Of a stretch of 54,857 nucleotides of DNA, positions 2,015 to 26,369 are shown in pieces. Location of the stretch: the NCBI GenBank assembly GCA_046595075.1, contig JBKJPT010000098.1, positions 1-54,857 of the forward strand, given 5' to 3'. The translations under genes and the position numbers were made by a program. The notes beneath the pieces are model-generated. The model was not told the DNA's origin, made no database searches, and saw nothing but the letters and a program-made list of their open reading frames with translations. The DNA comes from Flavobacteriales bacterium (GTDB taxonomy: Bacteria; Bacteroidota; Bacteroidia; Flavobacteriales_F; PHOS-HE28). Every line of letters starts with the position of its first letter. Position 1 is the stretch's first letter.

Positions 2015-2129
2015 ATCGGGAACCCATGGAACGGCACTTGCCCCTGCGGCTTGTAAGTCTTTCCCGCAACCATGTAAGGCCCACCGCCCTTGGCGAACCT
2101 TTCTTTGCACTCTATTCCACAAAACCCCT

Positions 2130-2267
2130 GTGAACACGCACACCATCACCCTCCCGATCCTCGACATGAACAGCCCGCATTGCGCCACGTGTGTGAAGAA
2201 GGCCATCACATCTGCCGGCGTAGTGAGCAATAGCTTGCGATTCAAATTGGCGAAGCTGGACAAGTGA
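2130..2267 (+). CDS. 45-codon ORF with GTG start resembling the first half of a heavy-metal-associated (HMA) domain. May be a remnant.
   Basis: My translation: VNTHTITLPILDMNSPHCATCVKKAITSAGVVSNSLRFKLAKLDK*. It contains a CxxC metal-binding loop (HCATC) in the usual beta1-loop-alpha1 position of HMA domains and stops after about 45 aa. It is too short for the supplied ORF track. Confidence 0.3.
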   Translation: MNTHTITLPILDMNSPHCATCVKKAITSAGVVSNSLRFKLAKLDK

Positions 2268-2286
2268 TCTCAACAGAACCAACGAC

Positions 2287-2670: not shown

Positions 2671-2689
2671 ACCAACAACCTCTATTCCG

Positions 2690-3568: not shown

Positions 3569-5880
3569 GGGCGGCCATCGCATTGTGTGTGCTGTTCTGC
3601 GGATCAGCGATCGCGACTTTCGCACAGACGGATCATACCAGGCCGTTAGGCAGTTCGCTGATCGAAGGCGACTTCACCCCGAAGACCACGCGCTACGAAC
3701 TCACCATCAGCGATACGCTGGTGAACTTCACCGGCAAGCCACGCAAAGCCTTCGCAGTGAATGGTCAGTTGCCGATGCCCACGCTCACCTTCACCGAAGG
3801 GGACACCGCGTTGATCGTGGTACACAACGCCATGGCGAAGGAGGAAAGCTCTTTGCATTGGCACGGTCTGATCTTGCCCAACCAGTTCGACGGCGTGCCT
3901 TACCTCACCACCGCGCCGATCAAGGCCGGAACAACGGTCGAGTACAAGTTCCCGTTAGTGCAGAACGGCACTTACTGGTACCATTCGCACACCGATGTGC
4001 AGGAACAGAACGGCATGTACGGCGCGCTCATTATCCACAAGCGCGAAAAGCCAATGATGCCAGAACATGTCGTTATCCTCAGCGAATGGACGGACATGAA
4101 ACCGAAGGAAGTCCACCGTCGTCTTCACAGTGCGAACGATTGGAGCGCGATCAAGAAGCAGCGGATCCGGCCGGGCACGGTGCAGAGTTACAGCGATGCG
4201 ATCAAGGATGGTGCGTTGGGCATCAAGATCACCAACGAGTGGAAGCGCATGAACGCCATGGATGTGAGCGACGTCTACTACGACCTGCTCTTCGCCAACG
4301 GCAAGCCCGTGGATGAAGCACCGCAGTTCAAGGCTGGGGAGCGTGTGCGCGTGCGGTTGATCAACGGGGGCGCGAGCAGCTACTTCTGGATCACCTACGC
4401 CGGTGGCAAGATGACCGTGGTGGCCAGCGATGGCATCGATGTGGAGCCGGTGGAAGTGGACCGCTTCATCATGGGTGTGGCCGAGACCTACGACATCATC
4501 GTCACACTACCCGATGACAGCACTGCGTACGAACTGCTGGCCACCAGCGAAGACCGTGTGCGTTCCACTTCAGTGTGGCTCGGGTCAGGCATCAAGCAGT
4601 TGGCCATGCCGTTGGCCCCGCTCAAGTATTTCGCCGGCATGGAAATGATGAACGGCATGATGAAGATGAACGGCAACCTCGATGACATGGGGATGAACAT
4701 GAGCCTTCAACAGATGGACATGAACGTGGTGATGTACCCCGAGATCACGGGTGCGCCGCAAAAGAAGGCGAAGAGTGATAAGATGGATCATCATGAAATG
4801 CATAAGGACATGGACCACGGCGCGGGCGGAATGGGCGATATGTACAAGAGCAATGTGCTTTCGGACATCGTCACGCTCAACTACGCCATGCTGCGCGCGC
4901 CCAAGAGCACGGCCATGCCACCGGGGCCTTTGAAGGAGATGCGCTTCGAGCTCACCGGCAACATGAACCGATACCTGTGGGCCATCGACAACAAGACCGT
5001 GTCGGAGACCGACCGCATCCTGATCCGCAAGGGCGAGAACGTGCGCATCATCCTGCACAATAACAGCATGATGCGGCACCCCATGCACCTGCACGGCCAC
5101 TTCTTCCGCGTGGTGAACGGGCAAGGGGATCATTCGCCGCTGAAGAACGTGCTGGACATCATGCCGATGGAGACCGATACCATTGAGTTCGCGGCCACGG
5201 AGGATGGCGACTGGTTCTTCCACTGCCACATCCTCTACCACATGATGAGCGGCATGGGCCGCGTGTTCAGCTACGAAGGCACGCCCCCCAACCCGGCGCT
5301 GCCCGATGCGAAGAAGGCCGCCCGACTCTTCGCCCGCGACGACAAGGCTTGGCACTTCATGGCGCAGAACGACTTCGCCACGAACGGCAACGATGGTGAG
5401 GCCATGTACATGAACAAGCGCTGGAATCTGCAGAGCGAATGGCGCCTGGGCTACACGGAGATGCACGGCCAGGAGGTGGAGACCCATTTCGGCCGCTACT
5501 TCGGCAAGATGCAATGGCTCTTCGTGAACGCCGGCCTGGACTGGCGGACGCGTGACGGACACGGAGGCAAGGATCCGGAGGACAACCTCTTCGGGCAGAC
5601 CAACACCAAGAATAGCCGGAGCGTGGGGCACATCGGTTTCCAATACACCCTGCCGATGCTCCTGGTCCTTGACCTGCGCATCGACACCGATGGCCAGCTC
5701 CGCTCCCAACTGATGCGTGAGGACATCCCGCTAACGCCCCGTCTGCGCCTGGACCTGATGGGCAACACCGACCTGGAGTACATGGCCGGCTTGCGCTATG
5801 TGTTGGACAAGACGTGGGCAGTTAGAACCCACTACGATAGCGACATGGGGCTTGGGGTGGGGGTGACAGTGAACTACTAG
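3565..5880 (+). CDS. Multicopper oxidase (CopA/CueO-like) with a Met-rich insert and a roughly 200-aa C-terminal beta-rich extension
   Basis: All four copper-ligand motifs are present: HWHG, WYHSH, HPMHLHGH, HCHILYHMMSGM. Met-rich segment: MEMMNGMMKMNGNLDDMGMNMSLQQMDMNVVM. GTG start overlaps the previous stop (GTGA). Signal peptide ends ..ATFAQ. Confidence 0.9.
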   Translation: MRAAIALCVLFCGSAIATFAQTDHTRPLGSSLIEGDFTPKTTRYELTISDTLVNFTGKPRKAFAVNGQLPMPTLTFTEGDTALIVVHNAMAKEESSLHWHGLILPNQFDGVPYLTTAPIKAGTTVEYKFPLVQNGTYWYHSHTDVQEQNGMYGALIIHKREKPMMPEHVVILSEWTDMKPKEVHRRLHSANDWSAIKKQRIRPGTVQSYSDAIKDGALGIKITNEWKRMNAMDVSDVYYDLLFANGKPVDEAPQFKAGERVRVRLINGGASSYFWITYAGGKMTVVASDGIDVEPVEVDRFIMGVAETYDIIVTLPDDSTAYELLATSEDRVRSTSVWLGSGIKQLAMPLAPLKYFAGMEMMNGMMKMNGNLDDMGMNMSLQQMDMNVVMYPEITGAPQKKAKSDKMDHHEMHKDMDHGAGGMGDMYKSNVLSDIVTLNYAMLRAPKSTAMPPGPLKEMRFELTGNMNRYLWAIDNKTVSETDRILIRKGENVRIILHNNSMMRHPMHLHGHFFRVVNGQGDHSPLKNVLDIMPMETDTIEFAATEDGDWFFHCHILYHMMSGMGRVFSYEGTPPNPALPDAKKAARLFARDDKAWHFMAQNDFATNGNDGEAMYMNKRWNLQSEWRLGYTEMHGQEVETHFGRYFGKMQWLFVNAGLDWRTRDGHGGKDPEDNLFGQTNTKNSRSVGHIGFQYTLPMLLVLDLRIDTDGQLRSQLMREDIPLTPRLRLDLMGNTDLEYMAGLRYVLDKTWAVRTHYDSDMGLGVGVTVNY

Positions 5881-12340: not shown

Positions 12341-14608
12341 TCAGAACCGGTAGCTCACAAAGCCTTTCAAGAACAAGGGTGTGCCCGGCGTGAAGTGTAA
12401 TTCGCTCACCGGCTCGACTTCGTTCCTCAAGCGGCTCGCGGTATCGAACTGTGCCTGGTTCCATTCGGCGTTGAGAATGTTCTCCGCGCTGGCACCGATC
12501 TCGACCTTGGAGAAGCGATAGCTCACGACCGCATCGATGAGGAAGTAGCCTTTCGCAACGACCGTGTTGCTCTCGTTGGCAGGTCGGTCGGCGATGTGGC
12601 GGTAGCGCAGGCTCGCACTGAAGCCTTTGTCCTGCTTGTACGCAAGTCCGCCTATCGTCGTGAAGCGCGGAGCAAGAGGGATGGCATTCTCTCCTTCGGA
12701 CGGTCCGATGACCTTGCCATCCACTGCGTTCATGTCCAGATCGGCGAAGAGGTGACCGGTGAGCTGGTAGCGCACGCTGAGGTCGATCCCCATGCGGCGT
12801 GTCGGATCACTCGTCTCCACCACGCCACCGTCGCCCACGTACACCAGTTCGCTTTCCAGGTAGAGCGCGAAGAGGGCCGCGTTCACCAGCATACGCGGTG
12901 CAGGTTTGAAGGTGGAACCTAGGTCTGCGCCATAAGCGCGGGGGAGCGTGCGGCTCGCATCGCTCACCACCACCGCGCGTGCATCGTTGCTGTGGAACCC
13001 GATGCCCGTGCGCAAGTACAATTGCACACGATCACTGACCGCGTAGTTGAAGTTCAGCTTCGGACTGATGCGTTGCAGGGTGGCTTTGCCAGTGAGGCTA
13101 TCGACCCCTCGCGAGTCGGCGTACATGAACCGGAACACGTCCAGTCGGGCGGCCGGGTTGATGGAGAAACGCTCTGTGACCTCAAGCGTGGCGTCCACGA
13201 AGGCGCTCGCGTTCAGTTGGTCCACCGTGCCGGCAACGATGGTGTCGTAGACCACGCGCTGCACGGTGTTCTTCAGGGCGATGTCGGCCATGTCATATCG
13301 TGCGCCCACGCCTGAACTGAAATTGAGCGGCATGCTACCGAGATGCGTGCGTTGCGTGTAGGAGCCGGTGTAACCGCCGATCATGCGATCATCCGTCTGG
13401 TTGATCATATCGCCGTTCACACTGTCCGTGGCGAAGAAGGTGAAGTTGCTGTACAGGTTGAAGTCGTATTTCACGAAGTAGAGCTGGTTCTTGATCAATG
13501 CACCATTGCGCAGGCCATTGGACACCGTGGCGTACACGTTGGTGCGCGTGGTGTTGCCGCCTTCGTTGTTGTCGATTGCGCCGAAGCGGTCGATCAAGCC
13601 GCTTTCCACGGCACGCTGTGGGATCTGTCCGCTCGCGTTCCATGCTGCGCCGAACGTGCTGGCACCCAGCACGAGCCGTGTGCGTTCGCCCAACAGGCCC
13701 GTGTATTTGCCGAAGAAGTTGAACCGACCGAAATCCTGTTTGCTCTGGAAGTAGGCATCCGTGCGCGCGTATTCACCGGCGATATAGAAGTTCTCCTTGC
13801 GTTGACCGAACAGGTGCTTCTTGTCGAGCACATTGAAGAGACCAACCGCGCGGAATGTGTTGAACATGCCTCCTTCCACCTTCAGTTCTGTGCGCTCCAC
13901 CCGGTCGCGGGTCATGAACTCCACCGTACCGCTGGTGGCGAAGTCGCCGAAGCGCGCATCGTAAGGGCCCTTGTGTACCGCGAGCTTTTCGATCGTTTCT
14001 GGTATCGTGAAGTGCAGGTCGGCGTAGCCCTGGCCGTGCGCATGGCTCACCATATTCACTGGCATGCCGTCCACGCTCACCTGCAGATCGGTGCCGTGGT
14101 CTATATCGAAGCCCCGGAAGAAGATCTGTTCGGCCTTGCCACCACCGGCGTGCTGCGCAATGAAGAGCCCCGGCACAAGCGTCAGAAGGTCTTGTGAAGT
14201 GTTGATCGGCCGCGTGCGCATGTCCAACGCATGGATCACTTCGGTCTGTGACGCGGCCTGGTCGGGGGCTACGGTAACCTCCTTGAGATCGATCGTAGAG
14301 GCCACTAGCTGTATCGACAGGTCCATATCCTTACTCAGTGTGACATGCTGCTCCGCGGGCGAGAAACCCAGCGACTGCACTTTGATGGTGTGCTCGCCTT
14401 CGGGCAGCTTGGTGAAGGCAAAGTGGCCGAACACATCCACCACTGCGCCTACATTGAGGTCGGTGATGATCACACTCGCGCCTATGATAGGATCGCCACC
14501 ACTGTTCTGCACCGTGCCGGTGAGACGATAGTTCTGTGCCGAAGCGAGGAGGGCGAGCGAGGCGGCAGATGCAGCGAGCAGGATCCGTAAGTGTAGCGAT
14601 GGTTGCAT
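12341..14608 (-). CDS. TonB-dependent receptor with an N-terminal carboxypeptidase-regulatory-like domain
   Basis: Signal peptide, then NYRLTGTVQNSGGDPIIGASVII..GHFAF..LPEGEHTIKV (CarboxypepD_reg). Plug motifs: LLTLVPGLFIAQHAGGGKAEQIFFRGFD, VDGMPVN. Long beta-barrel ending in ..GFVSYRF, with a terminal aromatic residue. Confidence 0.9.
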   Translation of the reverse strand: MQPSLHLRILLAASAASLALLASAQNYRLTGTVQNSGGDPIIGASVIITDLNVGAVVDVFGHFAFTKLPEGEHTIKVQSLGFSPAEQHVTLSKDMDLSIQLVASTIDLKEVTVAPDQAASQTEVIHALDMRTRPINTSQDLLTLVPGLFIAQHAGGGKAEQIFFRGFDIDHGTDLQVSVDGMPVNMVSHAHGQGYADLHFTIPETIEKLAVHKGPYDARFGDFATSGTVEFMTRDRVERTELKVEGGMFNTFRAVGLFNVLDKKHLFGQRKENFYIAGEYARTDAYFQSKQDFGRFNFFGKYTGLLGERTRLVLGASTFGAAWNASGQIPQRAVESGLIDRFGAIDNNEGGNTTRTNVYATVSNGLRNGALIKNQLYFVKYDFNLYSNFTFFATDSVNGDMINQTDDRMIGGYTGSYTQRTHLGSMPLNFSSGVGARYDMADIALKNTVQRVVYDTIVAGTVDQLNASAFVDATLEVTERFSINPAARLDVFRFMYADSRGVDSLTGKATLQRISPKLNFNYAVSDRVQLYLRTGIGFHSNDARAVVVSDASRTLPRAYGADLGSTFKPAPRMLVNAALFALYLESELVYVGDGGVVETSDPTRRMGIDLSVRYQLTGHLFADLDMNAVDGKVIGPSEGENAIPLAPRFTTIGGLAYKQDKGFSASLRYRHIADRPANESNTVVAKGYFLIDAVVSYRFSKVEIGASAENILNAEWNQAQFDTASRLRNEVEPVSELHFTPGTPLFLKGFVSYRF

Positions 14609-14690
14609 GTGTGTATTCCGCTTCAGCGGAGGGAGTTGGTTCTGGTGGTAGGGTGATCCATGTACAAGATCAGGGATCCCATTGGATCGG

Positions 14691-15362
14691 TCAGGTGTAG
14701 AAGATCCGCTCCACGGTCCAATAGCCTGCTATGAGCATTATCACAGCCGAGAGGGGCACCACGATAACGCGGCGGTAGTAGGGCTTCTCCCGGAACCAAA
14801 GTCCGAAGAGCAGGAAGGCGAGCAGGATCACGGTGATCTGTCCAAGTTCAACACCCACATTGAAGGTGATGAGCGTTGTGAGGAAGTGCTTGGGCGGTAG
14901 GCCGAGTTCGGACAGCGCCCCAGCGAAACCCAGACCGTGGATGAGGCCGAAGAAGAATACTACGCCGATACGTGATCTGCGCAATCCCTGCGAGATGATG
15001 TTCTCCAGCGCGACCACCATGATGCTTATGGCGATGAGCGGCTCTACGATCGCCGGTGGGGGGGTGATAACCCCGTACATCGCCAGTCCAAGGGTGATCG
15101 AGTGCGCCACAGTGAACGCTGTGGCCTGCCAGAGGATCGGCTTCCACTTTGGACTGAGCAAGTATAGGCTCAACACGAAGAGGATGTGATCGAAGCCTAA
15201 GGGTAGAATGTGCAGATAGCCCTGTTTCAGAAAGTACCAGCTTGCTTCAGGACCGGTGAGCAATTCCAACTCGTTGAAAGCCACGTGTGCGCTGGCCGGC
15301 AGCGCCGCAAGGAGCGAAGCTCCAAGAGTGAGCAGGATCCTATGTCCGCTTGTAGTGAGCAT
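14691..15362 (-). CDS. HupE/UreJ-family membrane protein (putative Ni/Co/metal permease family)
   Basis: Signal ..ALPASAHV, then GYLHILPLGFDHILFVLSLYLL and several TM helices (GLIHGLGFAGAL, GVELGQITVILLAFLL). This pattern is typical of the HupE_UreJ_2-type family. Confidence 0.8.
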   Translation of the reverse strand: MLTTSGHRILLTLGASLLAALPASAHVAFNELELLTGPEASWYFLKQGYLHILPLGFDHILFVLSLYLLSPKWKPILWQATAFTVAHSITLGLAMYGVITPPPAIVEPLIAISIMVVALENIISQGLRRSRIGVVFFFGLIHGLGFAGALSELGLPPKHFLTTLITFNVGVELGQITVILLAFLLFGLWFREKPYYRRVIVVPLSAVIMLIAGYWTVERIFYT

Positions 15363-15383
15363 GCGAATGGGCGATGGAGCCGA

Positions 15384-16748
15384 TCAGTTGCCCAGCACGA
15401 GCCGCGCCTCTTCGGCGAACGGATGGTGCTGGTAGGGATCCAACTTGAAGCTCTCGGCGATCAGCGCCTTGCCTTTGGAAGCGTCGCCGTTCTTGGCGGT
15501 GATCAATCCATCTAGGCATTGCAAATACGCATCGTTGGAGTTGGTGCGCTTGGCACGTGCGATGAAACCCGCAGCGGTCGCAGCATCGCCTTTGGCGTAG
15601 TGGATGGCCGCTAGTGTCCCGTTCACATCGTTGTTGTTCGCGCGGTGCGTGGCTTCGTGTTGTGCATTGATCAGTGCGTTCTCCAGGTCCTTTGCGAACT
15701 CCAGCTGATAGCGGGCCATTTCCAAGCCCACTTGGTGGCTATGTCCTTCGCCACCCTTGGCTAGACCGGCTAGCACGAGCCCAGCGTTGCGCACAGCCTC
15801 GTCGCGCAGATCGGTCTTGTTTTGTGCGCTATAAACGCGCGCCAGTTCTTGGTGGAAGCCCGCGTCCGGCATCAAGGCGATGGCCGCGTTCAGTTGTTTC
15901 TCTGCTTCGGGATAGTTCTTCAGTTTGCCCGCCACACGACCAAGCGCTGCGAGCGCGAACGGGTAGTTAGGTCGCTCGGCCAGTGCTTGTTCGTACTGCT
16001 GTTGTGCGGTTGCTAGATCCCCAGTGCGTTCGCTGAGGCCTCCTAGTTGCACGCGGCACCAGCTGTGGTCCTCGCTGCCGGGATAGCCCGCCTGCACGGC
16101 CATGTCCATGGCTTGCATCGCGCCGGGCACATCGCCATGGATCTCGCGCAGGTAGCTCACGCGGCTGTAACTACGCAGGTCCGGACGGATGGTGACCATC
16201 TTGTCGCTCATGGCAACGGCCGTGGCGTAATCGCCCAGCTCCACATTGGCATCCACGAGAATGCCATAGTTGAACGCGCGGTGGGGATCCAGCGCCACTG
16301 CTTCTGCGCCCAGGGTGAGCGCCTCTTGGAATTCGTGCTGGCTCAATTTGATGAGCGCCTTCAAGGTGAGCGCCTCGCTACGCAAATTCACGCTGGGTCC
16401 GGTCTTGGTGGTTGTCTTGGCCAACACACGATCCAAGATCGTGAGCGCGGCGCTGTAGTTGGGCGCGTAGTTGCCGGTGATGCGTGCTTCGGTGATGAAT
16501 ACCTCGCTAAGCTTCAACCAGCTCTTGAGGTCATCGGGCTGTATGCCCAGGTGTTCCTTCAAGGTGGTATACGTGGTGCGTAGGTTCTCCGCCTCGCCCG
16601 GCATACCGGTTTGGACGGTTCGTGCAGGTAGATCGGGAACGAGCGACGCGGTTGCGTTCGGCATTCGCGCATTTGCTCCACTGCTGTCAGTGCAGGAAGC
16701 GAGCATTCCGCAGAAGCCAATAATGAGAAGGGAGTTGAGAGTTTTCAT
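15384..16748 (-). CDS. Tetratricopeptide-repeat lipoprotein
   Basis: Lipobox LIIGFCGMLASCTD. Repeated 34-aa A/L/Y-rich helical units throughout (..AFNYGILVDANVELGDYATAVAMSDKMVTIRPD.., ..ALAALGRVAGKLKNYPEAEKQLNAAIALMPD..). Confidence 0.75.
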   Translation of the reverse strand: MKTLNSLLIIGFCGMLASCTDSSGANARMPNATASLVPDLPARTVQTGMPGEAENLRTTYTTLKEHLGIQPDDLKSWLKLSEVFITEARITGNYAPNYSAALTILDRVLAKTTTKTGPSVNLRSEALTLKALIKLSQHEFQEALTLGAEAVALDPHRAFNYGILVDANVELGDYATAVAMSDKMVTIRPDLRSYSRVSYLREIHGDVPGAMQAMDMAVQAGYPGSEDHSWCRVQLGGLSERTGDLATAQQQYEQALAERPNYPFALAALGRVAGKLKNYPEAEKQLNAAIALMPDAGFHQELARVYSAQNKTDLRDEAVRNAGLVLAGLAKGGEGHSHQVGLEMARYQLEFAKDLENALINAQHEATHRANNNDVNGTLAAIHYAKGDAATAAGFIARAKRTNSNDAYLQCLDGLITAKNGDASKGKALIAESFKLDPYQHHPFAEEARLVLGN

Positions 16749-16832
16749 GGCGGTGGTGGTTGTATGGGGACCGCTTTGCCCCGGAGCACTGACCTTACGG
16801 GGTCGGTGCTCCGGGGGAACGGTGGTTTTGGA

Positions 16833-18893
16833 CTACTGCTTCGTCAATTTCATTGCGCCCAACAGCGCGCCTTGGGCGTCCACTGCTTTGGCCAGATAAG
16901 TGCCCGCTGCGATGCCGCTCGCGTCCCATGTGATGGTGCGCGTGCCGCTACTCATTTTGCCAGCGAACGGTGTTGCGATGAGCTTGCCGGTCACGGAGTA
17001 GATCTCCATGCGCACGACGCCATCAGCCTTCAGGTTGAACTGGAAGGTGGTGCGATCAGCGATCGGGTTCGGGAACGCGGTGAGTAGCACAGCGCCGCCG
17101 CTCAGGTCGTTCACGCCAACAGTGCCGTCGCTCGGATCGAGAATGGCAGGCTGCGTGTAGTTGATCGCGAGGCCACTGCAATCGCCAGTGCCGCGGTTCG
17201 GCGCTGCCAAGTATGGGAACTCCGCTTGGAAGGGCTGATCGTTCGCATCGATGCCGGTGCTGTACGTGAGCACATCCATCAGGTCCTGCGTTACGGGGTT
17301 GGGGTCGCCATTGGTGTAGTCATCGTACCACAGACCGATCGCGGCCAGTGCCACGCCTCCTACTGCTTGCAGCTCAATGCGCGTTACATCATCCTCCAGG
17401 CGACGACCGTTCGGGAAGCCGTCCATGTTGGGGATGAATTGCAGCGAAGCATCGGCGTTGTACAGCGGATCGGTAAGGCCCGAGACCGCAGCGGCAATAA
17501 TACCCAGAGGGCTAAAAGCGGGATCATTGCGCTGCGTCACTGGTACCGCCATGTTCAAGCGTAGCATATCGCCACCGTTGGGCAGGAAGTTGTTGATGAA
17601 GGGCTTGCCCACGGCGAGCGGGTTGCCCATTTTGCCGGTGGCGAGTTGATACGGTGCCAGGTTCGGCACGCCGGTATGGAAGATCGGCCACAGGTCCACG
17701 CTGCGTGGGCTGTTGTCCGCAGGAAGAAGAAGCGTTCCGAAGATCGCATCGTCCAACGCGGTGCCAGCAACGGCAGCGGTGTTCTTCAAGGGCCACAGGC
17801 CGCTTTGCCCGTTGCCAAAGTCGAAGCCCTGCAAGCTGTTGCGCTGAATGCGCAGCGGCGCGAAGGCCGGCACGGCACCGCCGAAGAGATCATCATCCAT
17901 GTACAGCGCCAGTTCGGGGTTGTAGAAGTAGTTACCGAAGGTGCCAATGTTCGCGAGGTCTTCGTAAGGCGTCAAGCCGTTCCACAGGTCCTTGCTGCCG
18001 ATGGGGATCACCACTTCGTTGGTCAAGGGCATACCCAAGCGCGATACCTGTACCCAAGCACCCATATAGTCCTGTGTGCCATCGGTGTTCAGCGTGCGCA
18101 TGGTCCGGCGACTTGCGCTGGCCCAAACACCGATCACGAAGTCGGGGTCAAGGATGCTCGTAGCCGAACTCACGCTCAATCCGTCCTTCTGCAAGGTGCT
18201 GATCGGGATCTTCAGCACGATCGCGCTCACGTTCAAGCAGGCAAGGCCGTCCTTCGGCGTGCCGTTCTGCCGGGGCAGATCGCCCAGGTCGAACACACCC
18301 GCTAGGTCCACATAGAAGGGATCGTCCACCGGACCGCAGAACACCGTTTCGCCGGTGCTCGTTGGGTGGTAGGCGCTCGACATCAGTTGGGCGTAGTTCG
18401 TGTTCAAACCCGCAGAACCCGTGATGCTGCGCGCACCGATATTGTTGGGCGGAACAATGCCGTTCAACTTGATCGCTTGGAAGCTCGCGCCTCCATCTAT
18501 GCTGCGCTCCAGCGTGTAGGTCGTCTTCAGGTTCTGTTGGCCCAAGCGTACGTTGAAGAAGGTGCTTGGGTCCTCATTCTCCTTGAAGAAGGTAAAGCGG
18601 TAGATGATGTCATCACCGGCAGTGGTCACATCATTGTCGATGTGGATCTCGTACCGGATGTTCTGCCCGAACGAGTAATAGTTGGGTCCGCCGTGGGGCA
18701 GTTGCATCGGAACGTAGTTCGCGATGATGATGATCGAGTTGGGATCATCAGGGCTGCGGAAGGCGTACACGTCCGTGTTGTCGGCCAGCGGATCATTGGC
18801 GATCAGCGGTGCCTCACGGTGGCTGCTGGCGCTGGCCACGCTCGCTAGGAGCAGGCCGCCGACCAGAGCGAGGTTCTTGAGTTGGTTTTTCAT
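16833..18893 (-). CDS. DUF4331-family protein with a T9SS C-terminal sorting domain
   Basis: Trimmed to the ATG at 18893 (MKNQLKNLALVGGLLLASVASA signal). Mature N-terminus SSHREAPLIANDPLADNTDVYAFRSPDDPN is the DUF4331 signature. C-terminal tail FPNPIADRTTFQFNL..MEIYSVTGKLI..GTYLAKAV is Por_Secre_tail-like. Confidence 0.85.
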   Translation of the reverse strand: MKNQLKNLALVGGLLLASVASASSHREAPLIANDPLADNTDVYAFRSPDDPNSIIIIANYVPMQLPHGGPNYYSFGQNIRYEIHIDNDVTTAGDDIIYRFTFFKENEDPSTFFNVRLGQQNLKTTYTLERSIDGGASFQAIKLNGIVPPNNIGARSITGSAGLNTNYAQLMSSAYHPTSTGETVFCGPVDDPFYVDLAGVFDLGDLPRQNGTPKDGLACLNVSAIVLKIPISTLQKDGLSVSSATSILDPDFVIGVWASASRRTMRTLNTDGTQDYMGAWVQVSRLGMPLTNEVVIPIGSKDLWNGLTPYEDLANIGTFGNYFYNPELALYMDDDLFGGAVPAFAPLRIQRNSLQGFDFGNGQSGLWPLKNTAAVAGTALDDAIFGTLLLPADNSPRSVDLWPIFHTGVPNLAPYQLATGKMGNPLAVGKPFINNFLPNGGDMLRLNMAVPVTQRNDPAFSPLGIIAAAVSGLTDPLYNADASLQFIPNMDGFPNGRRLEDDVTRIELQAVGGVALAAIGLWYDDYTNGDPNPVTQDLMDVLTYSTGIDANDQPFQAEFPYLAAPNRGTGDCSGLAINYTQPAILDPSDGTVGVNDLSGGAVLLTAFPNPIADRTTFQFNLKADGVVRMEIYSVTGKLIATPFAGKMSSGTRTITWDASGIAAGTYLAKAVDAQGALLGAMKLTKQ
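17335..17850. repeat. Copy A of a roughly 515-bp near-identical block shared by the two DUF4331 paralogs
   Basis: By-eye alignment to 19127-19642 (offset 1792). It includes a 92-nt exact run (17665-17756 = 19457-19548). The encoded ~170 aa are almost identical, while the flanking parts of the paralogs are clearly more diverged. Confidence 0.8.
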
Positions 18894-18963
18894 TTTGTGA
18901 ATGGGTTGGGGCGCGAGACCTCTCGCCCATACCTGGGCGCAAGCGGCTCTTGCCATGGGCCGA

Positions 18964-20697
18964 TCAGATATCCGTACCCCTCCAAGGAGCGGCCACGTAA
19001 GGGAATGTGTTTCCAAAATCCGCGTCGTTCGCTTCCACGCCAGTGCTGTATTGGAGCGTGTTGATGAGCAGGTTCGTCACCGGGCTTTGGTTGGGGTTGC
19101 CAGCGTTGTAGTCGTCCATCCACAGGCCAATTGCGGCCAGTGCGACACCACCCACGGCTTGCAGCTCAATGCGCGTTACGTCATCCTCCAAGCGACGCCC
19201 GTTGGGGAAGCCGTCCATGTTGGGAATGAACTGGAGCGAAGCATCGGCGTTGTAAGCAGGATCGGTGAGGCCCGAAACCGCAGCTGCCACGATGCCGAGC
19301 GAACTGAAGGCAGGGTCGTTACGCTGGGTAACAGGCACCGCCATGTTCAAGCGCAGCATATCGCCACCGTTGGGCAGGAAGTTGTTGATGAAGGGCTTGC
19401 CTACGGCGAGCGGGTTGCCCATTTTGCCCGTGGCCAATTGGTATGGAGCCAGGTTGGGCACGCCGGTATGGAAGATCGGCCACAGGTCCACGCTGCGTGG
19501 GCTGTTGTCCGCAGGAAGAAGAAGCGTTCCGAAGATCGCATCGTCCAATGCGGTGCCAGCAACGGCAGCGGTATTCTTTAAGGGCCAAAGGCCGCTTTGC
19601 CCGTTGCCGAAGTCGAAGCCTTGCAAGCTGTTGCGCTGGATACGTAGACCAGCAAAGGCGGGTACCGCTCCACCGAACTGATCGTCATCCATGTACAGCG
19701 CCAGCTCCGGGTTGTAGAAGTAGTTGCCGAAAGTGGCCAGGTTCGCGAGGTCCTCATAAGGGGTGAGTGCGTTCCAGTAGTCCTTGCTGCCGATGGGGAT
19801 CACCGCTTCGTTGGTCAAGGGCATGCCGAGGCGCGACACTTGCACCCAGTTGCCGCTCTCGGAGTAACCGCTGGCATCAAGCGTGCGCATTGCAGGGCGA
19901 CTTGCACTGGCCCATACACCGATCACGAAATCGGGATCGAGGATAGTGGTGGCCATGCTCACGTCCATGCCGTTCTTCTGCAACAGGCTGATGGGGATCT
20001 TCAGACAGATGCTGTGCACGTTGGTGCGTGCAACACCGTCGCGCACAATGCCGCCGTTGTTCTGGCGGGGTGCATCACCCAAGTCAAAAATGCCACCGAG
20101 GTCCACGAAGAAGGGATCATCAGCTGGGCCGCAGTAAACGGTCTCGCCAGAGCTGGCGGTACTGATGGCTGCGATGATCAGCGATTGATAGCTCGCAGCT
20201 CCCAACCCTGCACCGCCTTCGATGCTGCGCGGGCCGATGTTCGGCGGCGGCACTTTGCCGTTGCTGAGCACCGTGGTCCACGTTGCACCGCCGTCCGTGC
20301 TCTTCTCCATCGTGTACATGGTCAGCAGGTTCTGCTGGCCTAGGCGGATGTTGAAGAAGGTGGTGGGATCCTGGTTCGTCTTCGTGAAGGTGAAGCGGTA
20401 GGTCACATCATCACCAGGGGTCATGGTGTTGTTGTCGATGTGGATCTCGTACCGGATCCCTTCGCCGAAGCTGGCGTAGTTAGGGCCACCGAACGCGAGT
20501 TGCGCCGGTATGTAGTTGGCAATGATGGTGATGTAGTTTGGATCATCGGGACTGCGGAAGCAGTACAGATCCGTGTTGTCGGCCAACGGGTCGTTGGCGA
20601 TCAGTGGTGCTTCGCGGTGACTGCTGGCCCAGGCACTTGGCCCGGAGAAAGCACCCAACGCGACCCACGCACTAACAAGCAGCGTCTTGTAGTTCAT
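18964..20697 (-). CDS. DUF4331-family protein (no T9SS tail)
   Basis: Trimmed from the ORF-track start 21012 to the ATG at 20697 (MNYKTLLVSAWVALGAFSGPSAWA signal). This is directly followed by SSHREAPLIANDPLADNTDLYCFRSPDDPN. The protein ends ..FPYVAAPWRGTDI with no sorting domain. Confidence 0.85.
   Translation of the reverse strand: MNYKTLLVSAWVALGAFSGPSAWASSHREAPLIANDPLADNTDLYCFRSPDDPNYITIIANYIPAQLAFGGPNYASFGEGIRYEIHIDNNTMTPGDDVTYRFTFTKTNQDPTTFFNIRLGQQNLLTMYTMEKSTDGGATWTTVLSNGKVPPPNIGPRSIEGGAGLGAASYQSLIIAAISTASSGETVYCGPADDPFFVDLGGIFDLGDAPRQNNGGIVRDGVARTNVHSICLKIPISLLQKNGMDVSMATTILDPDFVIGVWASASRPAMRTLDASGYSESGNWVQVSRLGMPLTNEAVIPIGSKDYWNALTPYEDLANLATFGNYFYNPELALYMDDDQFGGAVPAFAGLRIQRNSLQGFDFGNGQSGLWPLKNTAAVAGTALDDAIFGTLLLPADNSPRSVDLWPIFHTGVPNLAPYQLATGKMGNPLAVGKPFINNFLPNGGDMLRLNMAVPVTQRNDPAFSSLGIVAAAVSGLTDPAYNADASLQFIPNMDGFPNGRRLEDDVTRIELQAVGGVALAAIGLWMDDYNAGNPNQSPVTNLLINTLQYSTGVEANDADFGNTFPYVAAPWRGTDI
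19127..19642. repeat. Copy B of the roughly 515-bp near-identical block shared by the two DUF4331 paralogs
   Basis: See copy A. The exact 92-nt run is at 19457-19548. Confidence 0.8.
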
Positions 20698-21053
20698 CGG
20701 TTTTTGGTTTTGGTTCGGGCGGCGGAGAGTTCCGGCGTCCGGGATCACATACGGGAGAATTAGGCCGATCGGATCGGCAGGGGCTGCTATTGCCGATCCC
20801 TCCTCGATCCTGGGCGGGTGTGTAGCTGGGATCCGCTGCTGGTCGGGGAAACCCGTGTTCACCATTGTGGCCCGAGCGTATTGCGCACGTGGCCTAGGAA
20901 CAATCCGACGGGGCATATTTTCACCAACACGGGAAGCACTGTACACGCTCTGTGGCAGACAATACCGCGAACGATCTTGGCTGCTGGGACCTCCCGAGGA
21001 TCGGATTCCCACCGAAGGCGCATATCCGGATCAAGCCCGACGTGACAAATGCC

Positions 21054-22100
21054 TTACGCCCAAACCGGGCTCCCCTCACTGCAATTCCGGCACATCTCAA
21101 TGCTGCTGCGCGACTTCAGCAGCGTGCTGCGGAAGTCGTTGTAGGCATCGCTGTGCCATAACTCGCGGAAGCTGTGCGTGCGCAGATCGCCGAGGACATG
21201 GTGTGCATCCTTATCGAAGCAGCAGGGTACCACACGCCCGTCCCAAGTGATCACGCAGCTGTGCCACATTTTCCAGCAATTGTCCTCCAACTTATTTCCC
21301 GCAGAGCCGGGACGTTTCCGCTTCAACTCCCACACGCCGTTCGCGTTGCGTCGGTAGCGGGCGTATTTGTCCTGCGTAGGGATCAGCGGGTGATCGTCCT
21401 TCGGCTCGTAGATCTGCGCGGTCTTCAGCCACAGGTCGTCCACGCCGATCTGCTTGGCAAGGGCACGCGCCTCGGGGATCTGGTGTTCGTTCGGTTTCAC
21501 CACCAGGAACTGGAAGACCACGTGAGGGGTGAGGCTCTTTAGCTTCTTCTTCCACTTCACGATCCGTTCCGCGCCCTCGATCACCTTGGCCAGTTCGCCT
21601 TCACGTCGGTAAGCAGAGTAGGTGTCCTGCGTGGTGCCATCGAGCGAGATGATCAATCGCGATAGTCCGCTGCGAACAGTGGCTTCCGCTTTCTCTTCGG
21701 TAAGGAAGTGCGCGTTGGTGCTGGTGTTGGTGTACAGCCCGCGATCGCTGGCGATGCGAACCATGTCCAGGAAGTTGGGATTGATGTACGGCTCCCCTTG
21801 GAAGTAGAATGTGAGGGCCCATAGGTCCGGAGCGAGCTCATCGATCACGCGCGTGAAGAGGTCTTGCTTGAGGTTGCCGGTGGGGCGGGTGAAGGACCGC
21901 AGCCCGCTCGGGCATTCGGGGCACCGCAGGTTGCAGGCCGTGGTAGGCTCGAAGCTGATGCTGAAAGGCAGCCCACCGATGCGTGGATCACCACTGCGCT
22001 TTGCACGCTGGTAGCTCGTCCATAAGCCAGCCGCGTTGCTTAAGCGCCGTGGCGTGGTCTTGCGTGACCACTCGAAGGCATCGCGTGTGCTAGCGAACAT
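21054..22100 (-). CDS. Radical SAM enzyme with a C-terminal SPASM-type auxiliary Fe-S domain
   Basis: CNLRCPEC is a CxxxCxxC motif, in FEPTTACNLRCPECPSG. C-terminal Cys cluster: CWKMWHSCVITWDGRVVPCCFD...MCRNCSEG. The ORF-track TTG start (22109) is trimmed to the ATG at 22100. Confidence 0.85.
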   Translation of the reverse strand: MFASTRDAFEWSRKTTPRRLSNAAGLWTSYQRAKRSGDPRIGGLPFSISFEPTTACNLRCPECPSGLRSFTRPTGNLKQDLFTRVIDELAPDLWALTFYFQGEPYINPNFLDMVRIASDRGLYTNTSTNAHFLTEEKAEATVRSGLSRLIISLDGTTQDTYSAYRREGELAKVIEGAERIVKWKKKLKSLTPHVVFQFLVVKPNEHQIPEARALAKQIGVDDLWLKTAQIYEPKDDHPLIPTQDKYARYRRNANGVWELKRKRPGSAGNKLEDNCWKMWHSCVITWDGRVVPCCFDKDAHHVLGDLRTHSFRELWHSDAYNDFRSTLLKSRSSIEMCRNCSEGSPVWA

Positions 22101-22171
22101 GGCTTGCAAGGTAGAGTGATGACGCAGGTCGTTCCGTTAGGTGGCTACCTTCCCCATCCAATTCCAACGGT

Positions 22172-23965: not shown

Positions 23966-25063
23966 TCAACGCGGGGCTACACGCGCCTTCGCCAGCTCGG
24001 AATAGAAGCCTCCTCCGTTCGCTACCCGTTGGTAGGCAGCGATCGATCCGGGGTCGTCCATGCGGTCCAACGTCAGCGCATGGTACCAGGATGCTTCTTC
24101 ATCGAACACGTTCACGGGATGCGTGGCGGCGCGCTGCAAAAAGGTGCGCGCTCGTTCGTAGAGTCCAAGGTTGTACGAACATAGCCCAGCATAGAACAGT
24201 GCGTTCACATCGTCGGGATATTGTGAGAGAACGAATCGCAGATCGTCCAAGCAGCCTTTGTGGTCGTTGTTGCTAAAGCGGTACAGTGCCTCGTCCATGA
24301 ATTCAGTGTATGAGAGCAGGACATCCTGCGCACGAAGGCTGTCCCTTCGTGCGGCATCGGCGAAACGTGCCGCCACATGTTCATCTGAGAGCTCCAAGGC
24401 CGGGTCGTTGCCGTAGAGTTCTTTCGGATGAACGAGCTTCAGGTCGTGCAGGAAGAGCAATTGTCTGTTGGTGTGGGAACGACCCGCCGATCTCACTGAA
24501 GTGGGTGATGTGGTGCTGCTCAGGTCTGTCTTGCGCGGATCCACTCGTTCGATCGTGGTCTCTCGCGGCACTGCCAGTCGGGCGGCTTCACGTGTGTGCA
24601 AGGCCATTCGTTCGTGGCCGATGCGTTCAGGTCGTGGTTGCTCCACGGCTGCAAGGATCTCGGCATTGGCCAGTGGTGCACCATCGTGATCGGTGATGGT
24701 GGATCCCTCGATGCGAGGTGTAGTGGACTCGGCGATCTGCTTCTCCGGTTCCGATGATGAAATGAAGTAGGCGGTGCCCACTACCGCTAGGATCACCGCA
24801 GTACCACCGCCGATCCACCAAGCGTTTTGCACACCGCGCGGTGCAGCTGGGCGCATGTGATCCAGTGAACGAGCCGCATCTACCGCTCCCGTGTATTTCA
24901 ATCCCTCCACGGCATCGCGAACCAGCGGGTCGTGTTCCATGTGGGCTTCTACAGCGTGTTGTTCCGCAGGCGAGAGCTGGCCTTGCGCGTACGCAAGCAA
25001 TTCTTCCCGCGTGGGTGGTCCGGCGCGATCGAAGGGGTGCATGTCAGGCGTTCTGGTCGGCAT
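23966..25063 (-). CDS. Anti-sigma-factor-like single-pass membrane protein with a C-terminal TPR-like domain
   Basis: N-terminus ..REELLAYAQGQLSPAEQHAVEAHMEHDPLVRDAVEGL resembles anti-sigma N-terminal helices. One TM segment (WWIGGGTAVILAVVGTAYFI). Lies directly downstream of and overlapping an ECF sigma gene. The start is ambiguous: ATG at 25063 or at 25042. Confidence 0.6.
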   Translation of the reverse strand: MPTRTPDMHPFDRAGPPTREELLAYAQGQLSPAEQHAVEAHMEHDPLVRDAVEGLKYTGAVDAARSLDHMRPAAPRGVQNAWWIGGGTAVILAVVGTAYFISSSEPEKQIAESTTPRIEGSTITDHDGAPLANAEILAAVEQPRPERIGHERMALHTREAARLAVPRETTIERVDPRKTDLSSTTSPTSVRSAGRSHTNRQLLFLHDLKLVHPKELYGNDPALELSDEHVAARFADAARRDSLRAQDVLLSYTEFMDEALYRFSNNDHKGCLDDLRFVLSQYPDDVNALFYAGLCSYNLGLYERARTFLQRAATHPVNVFDEEASWYHALTLDRMDDPGSIAAYQRVANGGGFYSELAKARVAPR

Positions 25064-25610
25064 GACGGTGTAGGTAAAGGCCCAGGTTGCGGCGGCCGTT
25101 CTGCAAATGGCTGCGCACTTGTTCAATGCTGAAGCCCGTGAGCTCGGCGGTGCGCTCGTAGCTCTGGCGTTCGAGGTGGAAGTGCCGGATGCAATTGCGC
25201 TGCGCCTCGTTCAGCGTCTCGATGGCGCGTTCAAGCTGTTGCAAAGTGGCTTCGTGCAATCGAGCCTCCTCGCTGTTCTCGTCGGAAGCTTGCAGCAATT
25301 CTTCTGGGATCGCGCTGGAGCGGAGGTCCTTCCGCAAGACCATGAGGCAGCGGTTGCGCATCACCGTATGCACCCATGCACGGAAGTGCTCCACTTCATG
25401 TTTCCGCACCAGCTCCGGTAGTGTGGTGAAGAGGTCCACCACGGTGTCCTGAGCCTGTTCGGTGTCCTTCAGGTATTTCATGCCTACACCGAAGAGCAGA
25501 TGCGCATAGCGGTCCCAGAGGTCGCCCAACGCACTCTGGTGCCCACCACGGATGGCGAGCACCAGGTCTTCATCGCTCGTGGCGATCGTGGTGCGGCTGC
25601 GCTGGAACAT
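25044..25610 (-). CDS. ECF-type RNA polymerase sigma-70 family factor
   Basis: Region 2 (LWDRYAHLLFGVGMKYLKD..AQDTVVDLF, FRAWVHTVMRNRCL) and region 4 (LNEAQRNCIRHFHLERQSYERTAELTGFSIEQVRSHLQNGRRNL). Confidence 0.9.
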   Translation of the reverse strand: MFQRSRTTIATSDEDLVLAIRGGHQSALGDLWDRYAHLLFGVGMKYLKDTEQAQDTVVDLFTTLPELVRKHEVEHFRAWVHTVMRNRCLMVLRKDLRSSAIPEELLQASDENSEEARLHEATLQQLERAIETLNEAQRNCIRHFHLERQSYERTAELTGFSIEQVRSHLQNGRRNLGLYLHRHADQNA

Positions 25611-25613
25611 GGA

Positions 25614-26369
25614 TCAGTCCGCAAGTTCGCGCTCCTCCGCTTCTTCACGCGCTTTGCGTTGCGCGTAATGGTACATCTCTGCGTAGGTCTTGGTCTCGAT
25701 CACGATCACGCCGCCGGTCACGTCGCCATAGCGGGCGGGCAATCCACCGGTGTACACGCTCACGCTACTGATCGCCGATGGCGGCACGCGCGGCACGGCC
25801 CCGCTCACCTTCACCCCATCGATGTAGCTCGCCATGTTCTCCGTCCGCGATCCGCGGAAGTAGAGTCCATCGCCGTTGGGTGCGGCAGTGACACCAGCGA
25901 ATTGCGAACTTACCAAGCCGAGGGTGTTCTTGGCGGTGGGCACTTTCTCGATCTCTGATGCCAGGAGCGTCATGACCCCGGGATTGTTCGGTTCGATCAA
26001 GGGGCGGCGATAAATGATGAACTCTGGAATGCTGTCCAGCCCAGCGCTTGCGATCATGTGTTGGTTGGGCAGAAAGGTGATCCGATCGGCGATCACCTCC
26101 ACGCCCTGCACGGTGATCGGCTTGGTGCCCACGTAGGAGATCTTGACGCTATACACACCCGGCTCCAGCGGTTTCAGGATGAAGCGACCATCAATATCCG
26201 TAACGGTGCCGAAGAGAGCGCCGTCACGATCGATGTACACGTTGGCCCCGACCTGTTCGGTGCCGTCTGGTGCGATGATCTTGCCGCGGATCTCGCCGAG
26301 GTTCTGTGCTTCGAGGAGGGAAGGGCTGCTGAGCGCGGTAAGCAGTAGGAGTGATTTCAAGGTGCGCAT
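25614..26369 (-). CDS. Carboxypeptidase-regulatory-like domain plus TonB-receptor plug domain, with no beta-barrel
   Basis: Signal peptide, then IRGKIIAPDG..GANVYI..TDIDGRFILKPLEPGVYSVKISYVG (CarboxypepD_reg). Plug motifs: YFRGSRTENMASYIDGVKVSG, VYTGGLPARYGDVTGGVIVIETK. The protein ends after 251 aa with a charged tail. Confidence 0.75.
   Translation of the reverse strand: MRTLKSLLLLTALSSPSLLEAQNLGEIRGKIIAPDGTEQVGANVYIDRDGALFGTVTDIDGRFILKPLEPGVYSVKISYVGTKPITVQGVEVIADRITFLPNQHMIASAGLDSIPEFIIYRRPLIEPNNPGVMTLLASEIEKVPTAKNTLGLVSSQFAGVTAAPNGDGLYFRGSRTENMASYIDGVKVSGAVPRVPPSAISSVSVYTGGLPARYGDVTGGVIVIETKTYAEMYHYAQRKAREEAEERELAD

Follow-up and report, generated by a model that had tools for sequence, protein, structure and literature searches.

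The stretch of DNA considered here (the window: 54,857 nt from a Flavobacteriales bacterium, assembly GCA_046595075.1, contig JBKJPT010000098.1) carries on its minus strand a cluster of five genes encoding two copies of a DUF4331 protein, the second with a type IX secretion system (T9SS) tail, a tetratricopeptide repeat (TPR) lipoprotein, a HupE/UreJ-2 family membrane protein, and a TonB-dependent receptor (Table 1). The original prediction, made from the sequence alone, had taken these open reading frames (ORFs) for a candidate metal-acquisition system; an ORF check and scans with Pfam and NCBIfam models confirmed all five, with the positions and domains that had been assigned to them. Successive genes are separated by 70, 84, 21, and 82 nt, which bears out the close spacing (21–84 nt) noted earlier, and a terminator scan placed no terminator-like site on the minus strand between the five genes. 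A combined sigma-70 promoter and terminator scan, which is ill suited to Bacteroidota, returned counts no higher than expected from shuffled sequence. The top database matches are 85–91% identical proteins that stem from Flavobacteriales metagenome-assembled genomes (MAGs).

Table 1. Features of the DUF4331 cluster in the window and of accessory genes at related loci (coordinates of the latter refer to the loci named)
Feature	Position	Strand	Basis
DUF4331-A, 577 aa	18964..20697	-	PF14224, E 3e-128
DUF4331-B, 686 aa, with T9SS tail	16833..18893	-	PF14224, E 2e-129
TPR lipoprotein, 454 aa	15384..16748	-	TPR families; lipobox ...LAS/C19
HupE/UreJ-2 family membrane protein, 223 aa	14691..15362	-	PF13795, E 2e-47
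TonB-dependent receptor, 755 aa	12341..14608	-	CarboxypepD_reg + plug + 22-strand-type barrel
Candidate ECF-sigma-type promoter, ATCC-N17-CGTA	20750..20774	-	Motif enrichment upstream of related loci
Probable gene-conversion tract, DUF4331-A	19353..19622	-	Partner tract in DUF4331-B at ~17561-17830
His-rich proteins of leaderless loci	L098 8550-9020; L099 8377-8754; L101 6386-6793		
Small membrane ORF, examples	L042 16348-16716; L046 16046-16519; L065 16020-16478; five more loci		

Predicted N-terminus and fold of DUF4331

Both DUF4331 copies cover the PF14224 model completely (positions 1–421 of 421), with scores of 429 and 433 bits (cut-off 27). DUF4331-A carries a Sec signal peptide (residues 1–24, 20626–20697), after which the predicted mature chain begins with Ser25-Ser26-His27 (20617–20625); because an anchoring domain is absent, this copy is presumably periplasmic. 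In DUF4331-B, the signal peptide comprises residues 1–22 and the mature Ser-Ser-His is encoded at 18819–18827. The T9SS tail that had been read at the end of this copy is confirmed as a type-A sorting domain at ~16869–17075 (TIGR04183, 28.9 bits, cut-off 23); it barely clears the threshold in Pfam (PF18962, Por_Secre_tail, 27.3 bits, cut-off 27), and the same tail is present in DUF4331 relatives. Such a domain would presumably leave DUF4331-B attached to the cell surface or secreted. The two copies are 79% identical to each other. Within a tract of ~270 nt, nucleotide identity rises to 93–97%, compared with 54–83% elsewhere in both genes, and ~110 consecutive amino acids are identical between the copies within this high-identity tract, which probably reflects a recent gene conversion between the paralogues.

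The family comprises 4,059 clusters at 50% identity with E <= 1e-3 and is found in Bacteroidota, Actinomycetota, Proteobacteria, Chloroflexota, Acidobacteriota, Eisenbacteria, and candidate-phyla-radiation (CPR) bacteria; no relatives were present in viral contigs. In a permissive Pfam scan of DUF4331, PF14224 alone matched. The earlier remark that the family has no assigned function holds, since no paper in the literature searched names DUF4331, PF14224, or HupE_UreJ_2, apart from one supplementary-table entry (PMC12537917), a sequence search of the PDB returned no relative, and the predicted fold found no match there either.

The mature N-terminus proved to be the key feature of the family. 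In both window copies, SSHREAP follows straight after the predicted signal peptide (AWA/SSH in DUF4331-A and ASA/SSH in DUF4331-B). Among 352 family sequences that include the N-terminal region, SSHREAP is found in 336 and X-Ser-His at the predicted mature end in all 352, so that the histidine flagged at the extreme N-terminus by the original prediction is universal in this sample. Mature residue 1 is Ala in four sequences and Thr in one, and Ser2 and His3 are invariant. The residue at position -1 is Ala (303), Gly (33), Ser (7), or Thr (1) in 344 of the 352, and position -3 is occupied by Ala, Ser, Thr, Val, Leu, Gly, or Ile; this pattern matches the signal peptidase I rule and predicts cleavage before X-Ser-His. 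The PF14224 Pfam model itself starts exactly at the mature Ser1. In eight clusters whose members lack a leader, the initiator Met directly precedes Ser-Ser-His, and since Met excision is efficient before Ser, the mature chain would again begin as NH2-X-X-His.

An amino-terminal Cu(II)- and Ni(II)-binding (ATCUN) motif is defined by a His at mature position 3, a free amine, and a residue 2 other than Pro (definition quoted in PMC12509749). As His is fixed at position 3, the amine of the processed chain would be free, and residue 2 is not Pro, DUF4331 matches this motif at the sequence level, and its mature end looks like an ATCUN Cu(II)/Ni(II) site, in which both the cleavage and the metal binding are predicted. 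The same three features characterize the ATCUN sites of serum albumin (Asp-Ala-His) and human Ctr1 (Met-Asp-His). Most of the known sites come from eukaryotic peptides and proteins, whereas in DUF4331, a large family of bacterial proteins, the motif would be generated when the signal peptide is cleaved off; here it is also embedded in a longer invariant stretch, SSHREAPxI, of which R4, E5, A6, P7, and I9 are invariant or nearly so. Since this stretch exceeds what an ATCUN site needs, the N-terminal peptide probably does more than chelate. ATCUN sites bind Cu(II) tightly and release it slowly. Metal centers that involve the N-terminal amine and are exposed by processing are also represented by the Ni-hook of NiSOD, the His-brace of LPMO, CopC, and YcnI, and the Met-His-Glu terminus of HypA. 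As in these proteins, the putative metal site of DUF4331 would need the exact mature N-terminus; however, their ligands are His1 or Cys instead of X-X-His3, and they have no sequence or fold relation to DUF4331.

Structure prediction had been proposed as a means of finding a metal site formed by the SSHRE segment. AlphaFold2 yielded a confident fold model for mature DUF4331-A (pTM 0.86, mean pLDDT 77), but the SSHRE stretch was left unplaced, residues 1–9 having a pLDDT below 50. A short leaderless relative was modeled at pTM 0.91 and pLDDT 90.9, and in both models the invariant N-terminal 9–10 residues are the sole consistently low-confidence part besides insertions. An invariant yet unplaced N-terminus is as expected of a hook that would become ordered on a metal or on a partner, and is proof of neither; the nine-residue hook of NiSOD, which is disordered without metal, offers a parallel. 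Foldseek searches with the two models against the PDB gave no fold match (best E 0.085 and 0.018, TM <=0.14), so that the fold, as modeled, is not represented in the PDB. Sequences from different phyla are ~40% identical, with 49 invariant columns spread along ~450 aa; an alignment of 100 sequences from several phyla contains 51 such columns, many of them Asp, Asn, Arg, or Glu.

Partner genes across phyla

The conservation of the gene neighborhood was first assessed by scanning one genome per species; the best 80 loci were all of the Fibrobacteres–Chlorobi–Bacteroidetes (FCB) type and include Flavobacteriales, Saprospiraceae, Chitinophagaceae, Cytophagales, Hymenobacter, Rhodothermia, Kapaibacteria, and Calditrichia. 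Partners were counted by searching six-frame ORFs with the window proteins in the 40 loci having at least 7 kb on both sides. Two tandem DUF4331 copies occur in 27 of these 40 loci, an orthologous TPR gene in 38, an orthologous TonB receptor (550–1200 bits) in 25, and a HupE/UreJ-2 gene in 17, the partner genes being almost all co-directional with DUF4331. The same co-directional set thus recurs in dozens of genomes, in support of the conserved gene unit posited at the outset. The TPR gene is therefore a near-obligate partner, whereas receptor and HupE/UreJ-2 are frequent but optional: in a Flavobacteriales MAG, a Lewinellaceae genome, and Fluviicola, DUF4331, DUF4331-T9SS, TPR, and TonB receptor genes follow one another in the same order with no HupE gene. 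A small membrane ORF (~120–160 aa) lies between HupE/UreJ-2 and receptor in eight Chitinophagaceae-type loci and is absent from the window; it is membrane-anchored, has the invariant pattern D..H..H..VH..G..H..E and no Pfam match, and may be a further metal-binding component. Other recurrent neighbors are a Cupin_2 protein in six FCB loci and an extracytoplasmic function (ECF) sigma factor in 15, often together with an RskA-type anti-sigma factor.

ECF sigma genes also adjoin DUF4331 in Pseudoalteromonas and in two metagenome contigs. The sequence ATCC-N17-CGTA, which matches the window only once, 53 nt ahead of the start codon of DUF4331-A, was counted in 290-nt windows upstream of the first DUF4331 gene at 80 related loci and found at 12 of them, always with a spacing of 17 nt, versus 0.46 expected (Poisson p ~6e-15). 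This enrichment and the adjoining ECF sigma/anti-sigma genes suggest that the motif is an ECF-type promoter. A search with Rfam models revealed no riboswitch in the region.

Outside the FCB group, 19 loci were sampled, 15 of them with Sec-type and four with leaderless DUF4331. The Sec-type loci feature a TPR-type partner in 11 of 15 cases and a transporter in nine, and the core shared by Actinomycetota, Proteobacteria, Paceibacterota, and others consists of DUF4331, a TPR protein, and either a HupE/UreJ-2 or an RcnA/NicO-like membrane protein. DUF4331 is followed by a TPR orthologue in an Eisenbacteria MAG, two unassigned metagenome contigs, Paceibacterota, Streptomyces, a second Streptomycetaceae strain, and Miltoncostaea; the third gene encodes HupE/UreJ-2 in Paceibacterota and a NicO-family protein of 507–626 aa in the two metagenome contigs and both Streptomycetaceae. 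Marinobacter, Pseudoalteromonas, a Comamonadaceae strain, and Lichenicola display DUF4331, sometimes a small ORF, a protein of 330–425 aa (with TPR repeats in the three that were scanned), and a long HupE/UreJ-2. The neighborhood check that had been called for therefore bears out a conserved TPR partner in the FCB group and a conserved pair of TPR protein and transporter elsewhere, but not a universal link to HupE or the receptor. In four Roseobacter-group loci (L094, L103, L104, and L105, on plasmids of Sulfitobacter, Marinovum, Jannaschia, and Paracoccus), DUF4331 lies inside a type II secretion system (T2SS) gene cluster with an A24 prepilin peptidase and GspD/E/F/J/K, is followed by an ORF of 70–75 aa, and has no TPR or transporter gene beside it; here DUF4331 looks like a dedicated cargo of the adjoining T2SS. 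One Streptomycetaceae locus has a class F sortase gene inserted, and DUF4331 is commonly fused to a peptidoglycan-binding, FlgD_Ig, SdrD_B, or T9SS domain. Judged by T2SS clusters, sortase, and anchoring-domain fusions, the consistent destination of DUF4331 is thus the cell surface or the surrounding medium.

The TPR orthologues outside the FCB group are 26–30% identical to the window protein, and residues H138, D166, E170, Y174, R196, Y199, W230, and R369 are invariant in 64 aligned sequences.

The HupE/UreJ-2 protein of the window matches PF13795 with 161 bits (cut-off 24.5) from residue 44 onward and PF04955 with an E value of 7e-8; none of the NCBIfam models matches it. Its signal peptide ends in ...PASA/H26 (His codon at 15285–15287), which predicts a mature N-terminal His. 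An alignment of 31 HupE/UreJ-2 partners shows no variation at H26, H51, D58, H59, H87, E107, H142, N168, or E172, and A25 is present in 28 of them. Every partner transporter examined, be it a short HupE/UreJ-2 (Bacteroidota and Paceibacterota), a long one (366–406 aa, Proteobacteria), or an RcnA/NicO-like protein, has a signal peptide ending in ...A/H and hence a predicted mature His1. The best model for three NicO-type partners scanned was RcnA, "nickel/cobalt efflux transporter", at 117–163 bits, below its cut-off of 195. A His1 after the signal peptide has been reported as 100% conserved in PF13795 proteins (PMC12537917). The anglerase domains of Ang-1 and Ang-2 bind Cu2+ (Kd 62–74 nM) and Ni2+ (220 nM) through a mono-histidine brace (PMC12537917; PDB 9GCE), and the authors propose that metal is captured for import (Franco Cairo et al. 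2025, Nat Commun, PMC12537917). The metal relevance originally attributed to the HupE/UreJ partner is strengthened by the His1 found in 31 of 31 sequences, together with this binding to related Ang-domain proteins. Like Ang-1 and Ang-2, the window protein has a signal peptide, a conserved His1, and a PF13795 membrane domain, but it does not belong to the Ang proteins, as it lacks the Ang domain, its His1 being no more than ~18 residues away from the first membrane helix. The long proteobacterial forms come closer to the Ang layout, with signal peptide, His1, a non-cytoplasmic domain of ~170 aa, and membrane domain; a phmmer search with these long forms against PDB chains gave no match. The commonest HupE/UreJ-2 neighbors are given in the same paper as "unknown function"; it does not deal with DUF4331 or the TPR partner, and its sole mention of DUF4331 is one supplementary-table entry, for which the count is 2 (PMC12537917). 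Classical HupE/UreJ nickel permeases, e.g., HupE of Rhizobium leguminosarum (Brito et al. 2010, cited in PMC12537917), belong to the related PF04955 family and likewise have an N-terminal His behind the signal peptide and conserved His and Asp residues in the membrane, but reside in hydrogenase or urease clusters and not with DUF4331, TPR, and TonB receptor genes; Ni/Co permease function is known only for HupE of this PF04955 type and not for the PF13795 branch. The literature searched held nothing relevant that ties HupE to ECF or TonB systems.

The TonB-dependent receptor, whose association with DUF4331 is limited to the FCB group, consists of an N-terminal CarboxypepD_reg domain, a plug (PF07715, 60.5 bits), and a barrel (PF00593, 82.7 bits). 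No substrate-specific NCBIfam model reaches its cut-off (best TonB-hemin, 78 of 317 bits; TonB-copper 30.7 of 472, SusC/RagA 50 of 368), and among solved structures the barrel comes nearest to PqqU/YncD and the plug to BtuB/OprC, all of these matches being weak. KEVTVAP (residues 109–115) resembles an xTxxV-type TonB box, a likeness seen by eye and unscored. Across 32 receptor orthologues, five histidines never vary, namely His153, His171, His189, and His191, which lie in the plug, and His539; Cys is absent from the protein. The plug histidines would be compatible with a metal or metal-chelate cargo, although they are not diagnostic. TonB-dependent importers are known for copper (OprC/NosA), zinc (ZnuD), and nickel (FrpB4). 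The window receptor resembles them in having plug and barrel in a metal context and a weak OprC/BtuB plug match; it differs from OprC/NosA in lacking their Cys/Met copper site, and in its N-terminal CarboxypepD_reg domain. A TonB receptor at the Eisenbacteria locus was considered as an orthologue and rejected, as it is unrelated to the window receptor. Elsewhere in the window, a 251-aa ORF (25614–26369, minus strand) comprises CarboxypepD_reg and plug domains with no barrel and represents a truncated receptor or a stand-alone plug protein, and a second CarboxypepD_reg TonB receptor is encoded at 27619–29880 on the plus strand.

The window copies of DUF4331 carry Sec signals, unlike a leaderless subfamily of Actinomycetota (e.g., Nakamurella, Kribbella, and Terrabacter), in which DUF4331 starts with Met-Ser-Ser-His. 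The TPR gene and the transporter are absent from all four leaderless loci sampled. In each of them, an ORF of 78–102 aa with a twin-arginine translocation (Tat) signal of the SRRxF[LIM]K type (SDRRTFIK, SRRGFLV, SRRGFMK, and SRRSFLA) ends 1–125 nt before the DUF4331 start; the mature "caddie" protein is ~50 residues long, and its Tat signal scores 18.7 bits with PF10518, below the cut-off of 22.7. Downstream, three of the four loci encode a protein of 125–156 aa with a long His-rich tract, e.g., HDDHDHPHSHDHPHTHD. These His-rich proteins belong to no Pfam family and have a common frame around the His tract, ENPxAGxG..LDIGGDIGA..., and ...PHVAVV.RP...G...L.V.V.GG.VT...WP. All four leaderless loci thus exhibit the gene arrangement of a Tat hitchhiker, namely a large subunit with no signal next to a small protein with a Tat signal. 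In such a system, the Tat-signal helper MelC1 loads copper and carries the leaderless MelC2 out. The precedent is Streptomyces tyrosinase (PMC2758597), to which the likeness lies in the small upstream Tat-signal gene and the large protein with no signal of its own, and from which the loci differ in that the caddie, at ~50 mature residues, is unrelated to MelC1; the comparison applies to the relatives and not to the window genes. By analogy, leaderless DUF4331 appears to be exported folded through Tat with the caddie, perhaps already loaded with metal, and export of a folded protein would be hard to reconcile with a pure uptake shuttle. The distribution of the accessory genes suggests that TPR protein plus transporter (outside the cytoplasm) and His-rich protein plus caddie (inside) are alternative maturation routes for one metalloprotein.

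Possible roles: metal relay or metalloprotein

The ATCUN-type N-terminus, the His1 partners from Ni/Co transporter families, the His-rich accessory protein, and the His-rich receptor plug all point to a metal of the Cu(II)/Ni(II) type and to the extracytoplasmic space, and it is highly likely that the cluster is metal-centered. The reading favored here, to which we assign a probability of roughly 40%, is that of an ECF-sigma-driven transcription unit encoding a Cu(II)/Ni(II)-type extracytoplasmic metal module that acts as an uptake relay, with cleavage, binding, direction, and co-transcription all predicted. Signal-peptide cleavage would expose NH2-Ser-Ser-His-Arg-Glu-Ala-Pro as a flexible hook on DUF4331, whose free amine, two backbone amides, and His3 would form an ATCUN-type square-planar site. 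DUF4331-B, exported through the T9SS, would capture the ion at the cell surface, the TonB receptor with its His-rich plug would carry it over the outer membrane, and periplasmic DUF4331-A would take it up and pass it to the N-terminal His1 of the HupE/UreJ-2 permease, by which it would cross the inner membrane; the membrane-anchored TPR protein may serve as a docking or chaperone partner of DUF4331. Ni(II) is the candidate metal on which ATCUN chemistry and the HupE/NicO families overlap, whereas Cu(II) is favored by the binding data of PMC12537917. Recurrent anchoring of DUF4331 at the surface (T9SS tail, peptidoglycan-binding domain, adjacent sortase, FlgD_Ig) would resemble Isd and hemophore relays. 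An outer-membrane gate paired with an inner-membrane permease, as originally envisaged, stands only for part of the FCB group, the universal partner being the TPR protein. The broader idea of an acquisition system fares similarly: the Bacteroidota layout is most simply an uptake relay, but RcnA-like partners belong to an efflux-named family and the leaderless Tat subfamily fits an exoprotein better.

Several observations weigh against the relay, and most of them favor the possible, though doubtful, alternative that DUF4331 is itself the end user of the metal. It would then be a metalloprotein, secreted or at the surface, with a probable enzymatic or redox role and with the nine-residue N-terminal hook as its metal center, comparable to the Ni-hook of NiSOD or the His brace of LPMOs. 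The conserved stretch R4-E5-A6-P7-x-I9 is longer than an ATCUN site requires, and the slow release of Cu(II) from such sites would be awkward for a shuttle. DUF4331 is large (450–550 aa) and, given its many invariant columns and the identity retained between phyla, more enzyme-like than carrier-like. In the Roseobacter group it appears as dedicated T2SS cargo with no transporter beside it, and anchoring by sortase, peptidoglycan-binding domain, or T9SS tail likewise agrees with an end user. HupE is missing from the cluster in more than half of the FCB loci, the near-obligate neighbor being the TPR gene and not the transporter, and the model that fits NicO-type partners best is RcnA, named for "nickel/cobalt efflux". 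The two sets of accessory genes complement each other, Sec-type loci having TPR protein and transporter and leaderless loci having the Tat mini-protein and, in three cases of four, the His-rich protein. If DUF4331 were the end user, TPR protein and His1 transporter would constitute a maturation machinery that delivers the metal outside the cytoplasm, with the Bacteroidota TonB receptor supplying the periplasm, like NosA/OprC; in Actinomycetota, a presumed intracellular His-rich chaperone would act before the Tat caddie carries the folded protein out, as MelC1 does for MelC2, a precedent that speaks for this arrangement (PMC2758597). On the other hand, neither the Pfam scan nor Foldseek against the PDB revealed a catalytic motif or a known enzyme fold. 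We know of no natural enzyme that uses an X-X-His ATCUN site, and the published model for HupE/UreJ-2 has the extracytoplasmic His1 capturing metal for import (PMC12537917).

ECF sigma control, which is commoner in stress responses than in metal-starvation regulons and in that respect sits uneasily with a relay, would suit a metal-stress module in which the ECF sigma factor senses an excess of Cu or Ni in the envelope, DUF4331 sequesters the metal tightly at its ATCUN site, both in the periplasm and on the surface, and the LysE-superfamily protein exports it from the cytoplasm. The ECF-type promoter motif, the adjoining ECF sigma/anti-sigma pairs, the match of RcnA-like partners to an efflux-named model, the tight and slow binding of ATCUN sites, and a copper-resistance-like gene set 6.4 kb away in the window agree with such a module. 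It is nevertheless very unlikely: the TonB-dependent receptor is an importer and as such plays no part in detoxification, a single site on so large a protein would make a poor buffer, the copper genes are split from the cluster by housekeeping genes and are not seen beside DUF4331 at other loci, and occurrence in the small genomes of Paceibacterota speaks against a resistance accessory. Rather unlikely, too, is a function that does not involve metal, in which DUF4331 would be a surface or periplasmic hydrolase or binder of an organic substrate, comparable to a polysaccharide utilization locus (PUL), and its N-terminus a nucleophile or a docking peptide for the TPR protein. The combination of a surface copy, a TonB receptor, and a periplasmic copy is a typical layout for nutrient loci in Bacteroidota. 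Short peptides are ligands of TPR domains, and the models predict a free N-terminal peptide; Ser1 could in principle be an N-terminal nucleophile (Ntn). However, the motif is invariant even in subfamilies that lack the TPR partner, and the recurrent third gene always belongs to a metal-transporter family with an N-terminal His. An Ntn hydrolase was rejected since it is residue 1 that varies while Ser2 and His3 do not, the fold is not an Ntn sandwich and found no such match, and the N-terminus is modeled as a free tail; a SusC/SusD-type PUL was rejected since SusD is missing and the SusC model scores far below its cut-off.

Receptor, permease, and secreted binding protein, the parts of the favored relay, form a list of a known kind, whereas the literature searched contains no description of the DUF4331 family, its fold, the motif at its processed N-terminus, its near-obligate TPR partner, or the two sets of accessory genes. 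The view that DUF4331 may itself be a metalloprotein served by the other genes draws on its size and degree of conservation, the length of the invariant hook, the variants with Tat, T2SS, and sortase, the TPR protein as tightest partner, and the efflux-type transporters; with it comes the tentative proposal that DUF4331 constitutes a new, widespread class of secreted N-terminal-hook metalloproteins with two alternative maturation routes. Were this the case, DUF4331 would be the first family of natural bacterial proteins to rely on a Cu/Ni site of the ATCUN type, and, if an enzyme, would add a new N-terminal metal center to those of NiSOD, LPMO, and CopC. If His3-dependent Cu(II)/Ni(II) binding at the processed N-terminus is borne out, with metal passing to or from the His1 of HupE/UreJ-2, it would provide a function for three linked families at once (DUF4331, the TPR protein beside it, and the His1 transporters of PF13795 or RcnA-like type), broaden the 2025 "anglerase" finding, made on a fused domain, to include a partner secreted as a separate protein, and show environmental bacteria, including T9SS-exporting Flavobacteria, obtaining or deploying Cu or Ni outside the cytoplasm.

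Neighboring genes in the window

Directly upstream, the cluster is adjoined by a radical-SAM/SPASM gene (21054–22109, minus strand), whose best NCBIfam match is a tungsten-cofactor oxidoreductase maturase at 133 bits, below cut-off. Its product was considered as a maturase of the DUF4331 N-terminus and rejected, as a homologue was found in 0 of 86 loci searched. At the Miltoncostaea locus (L096), a radical-SAM/SPASM homologue (72 bits) lies 5 kb upstream of DUF4331. The minus-strand region 23966–26369 encodes an ECF sigma factor (25044–25610) and an overlapping zf-HC2/TPR anti-sigma factor (23966–25126); this sigma factor was dropped as the cognate regulator of the cluster, since its similarity to DUF4331-linked ECF sigma factors elsewhere is only generic.

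The copper-resistance-like set occupies 18–5880 on the plus strand and consists of two CusB/HlyD-type ORFs (18–875 and 872–2014), a protein with HMA and DUF3347 domains (2513–3568), and a three-domain multicopper oxidase (3565–5880). The housekeeping genes between this set and the cluster are those for an aminotransferase, rplM, rpsB, tsf, pyrH, and frr. Elsewhere on the minus strand, another T9SS-tailed protein with CBM_4_9 and Por_Secre_tail domains lies beside a DUF5689 protein and an 848-aa plug-domain ORF (43589–44920 and 44946–48800); these genes at 43589–48800 make up a surface and receptor locus that is unrelated to the DUF4331 cluster.

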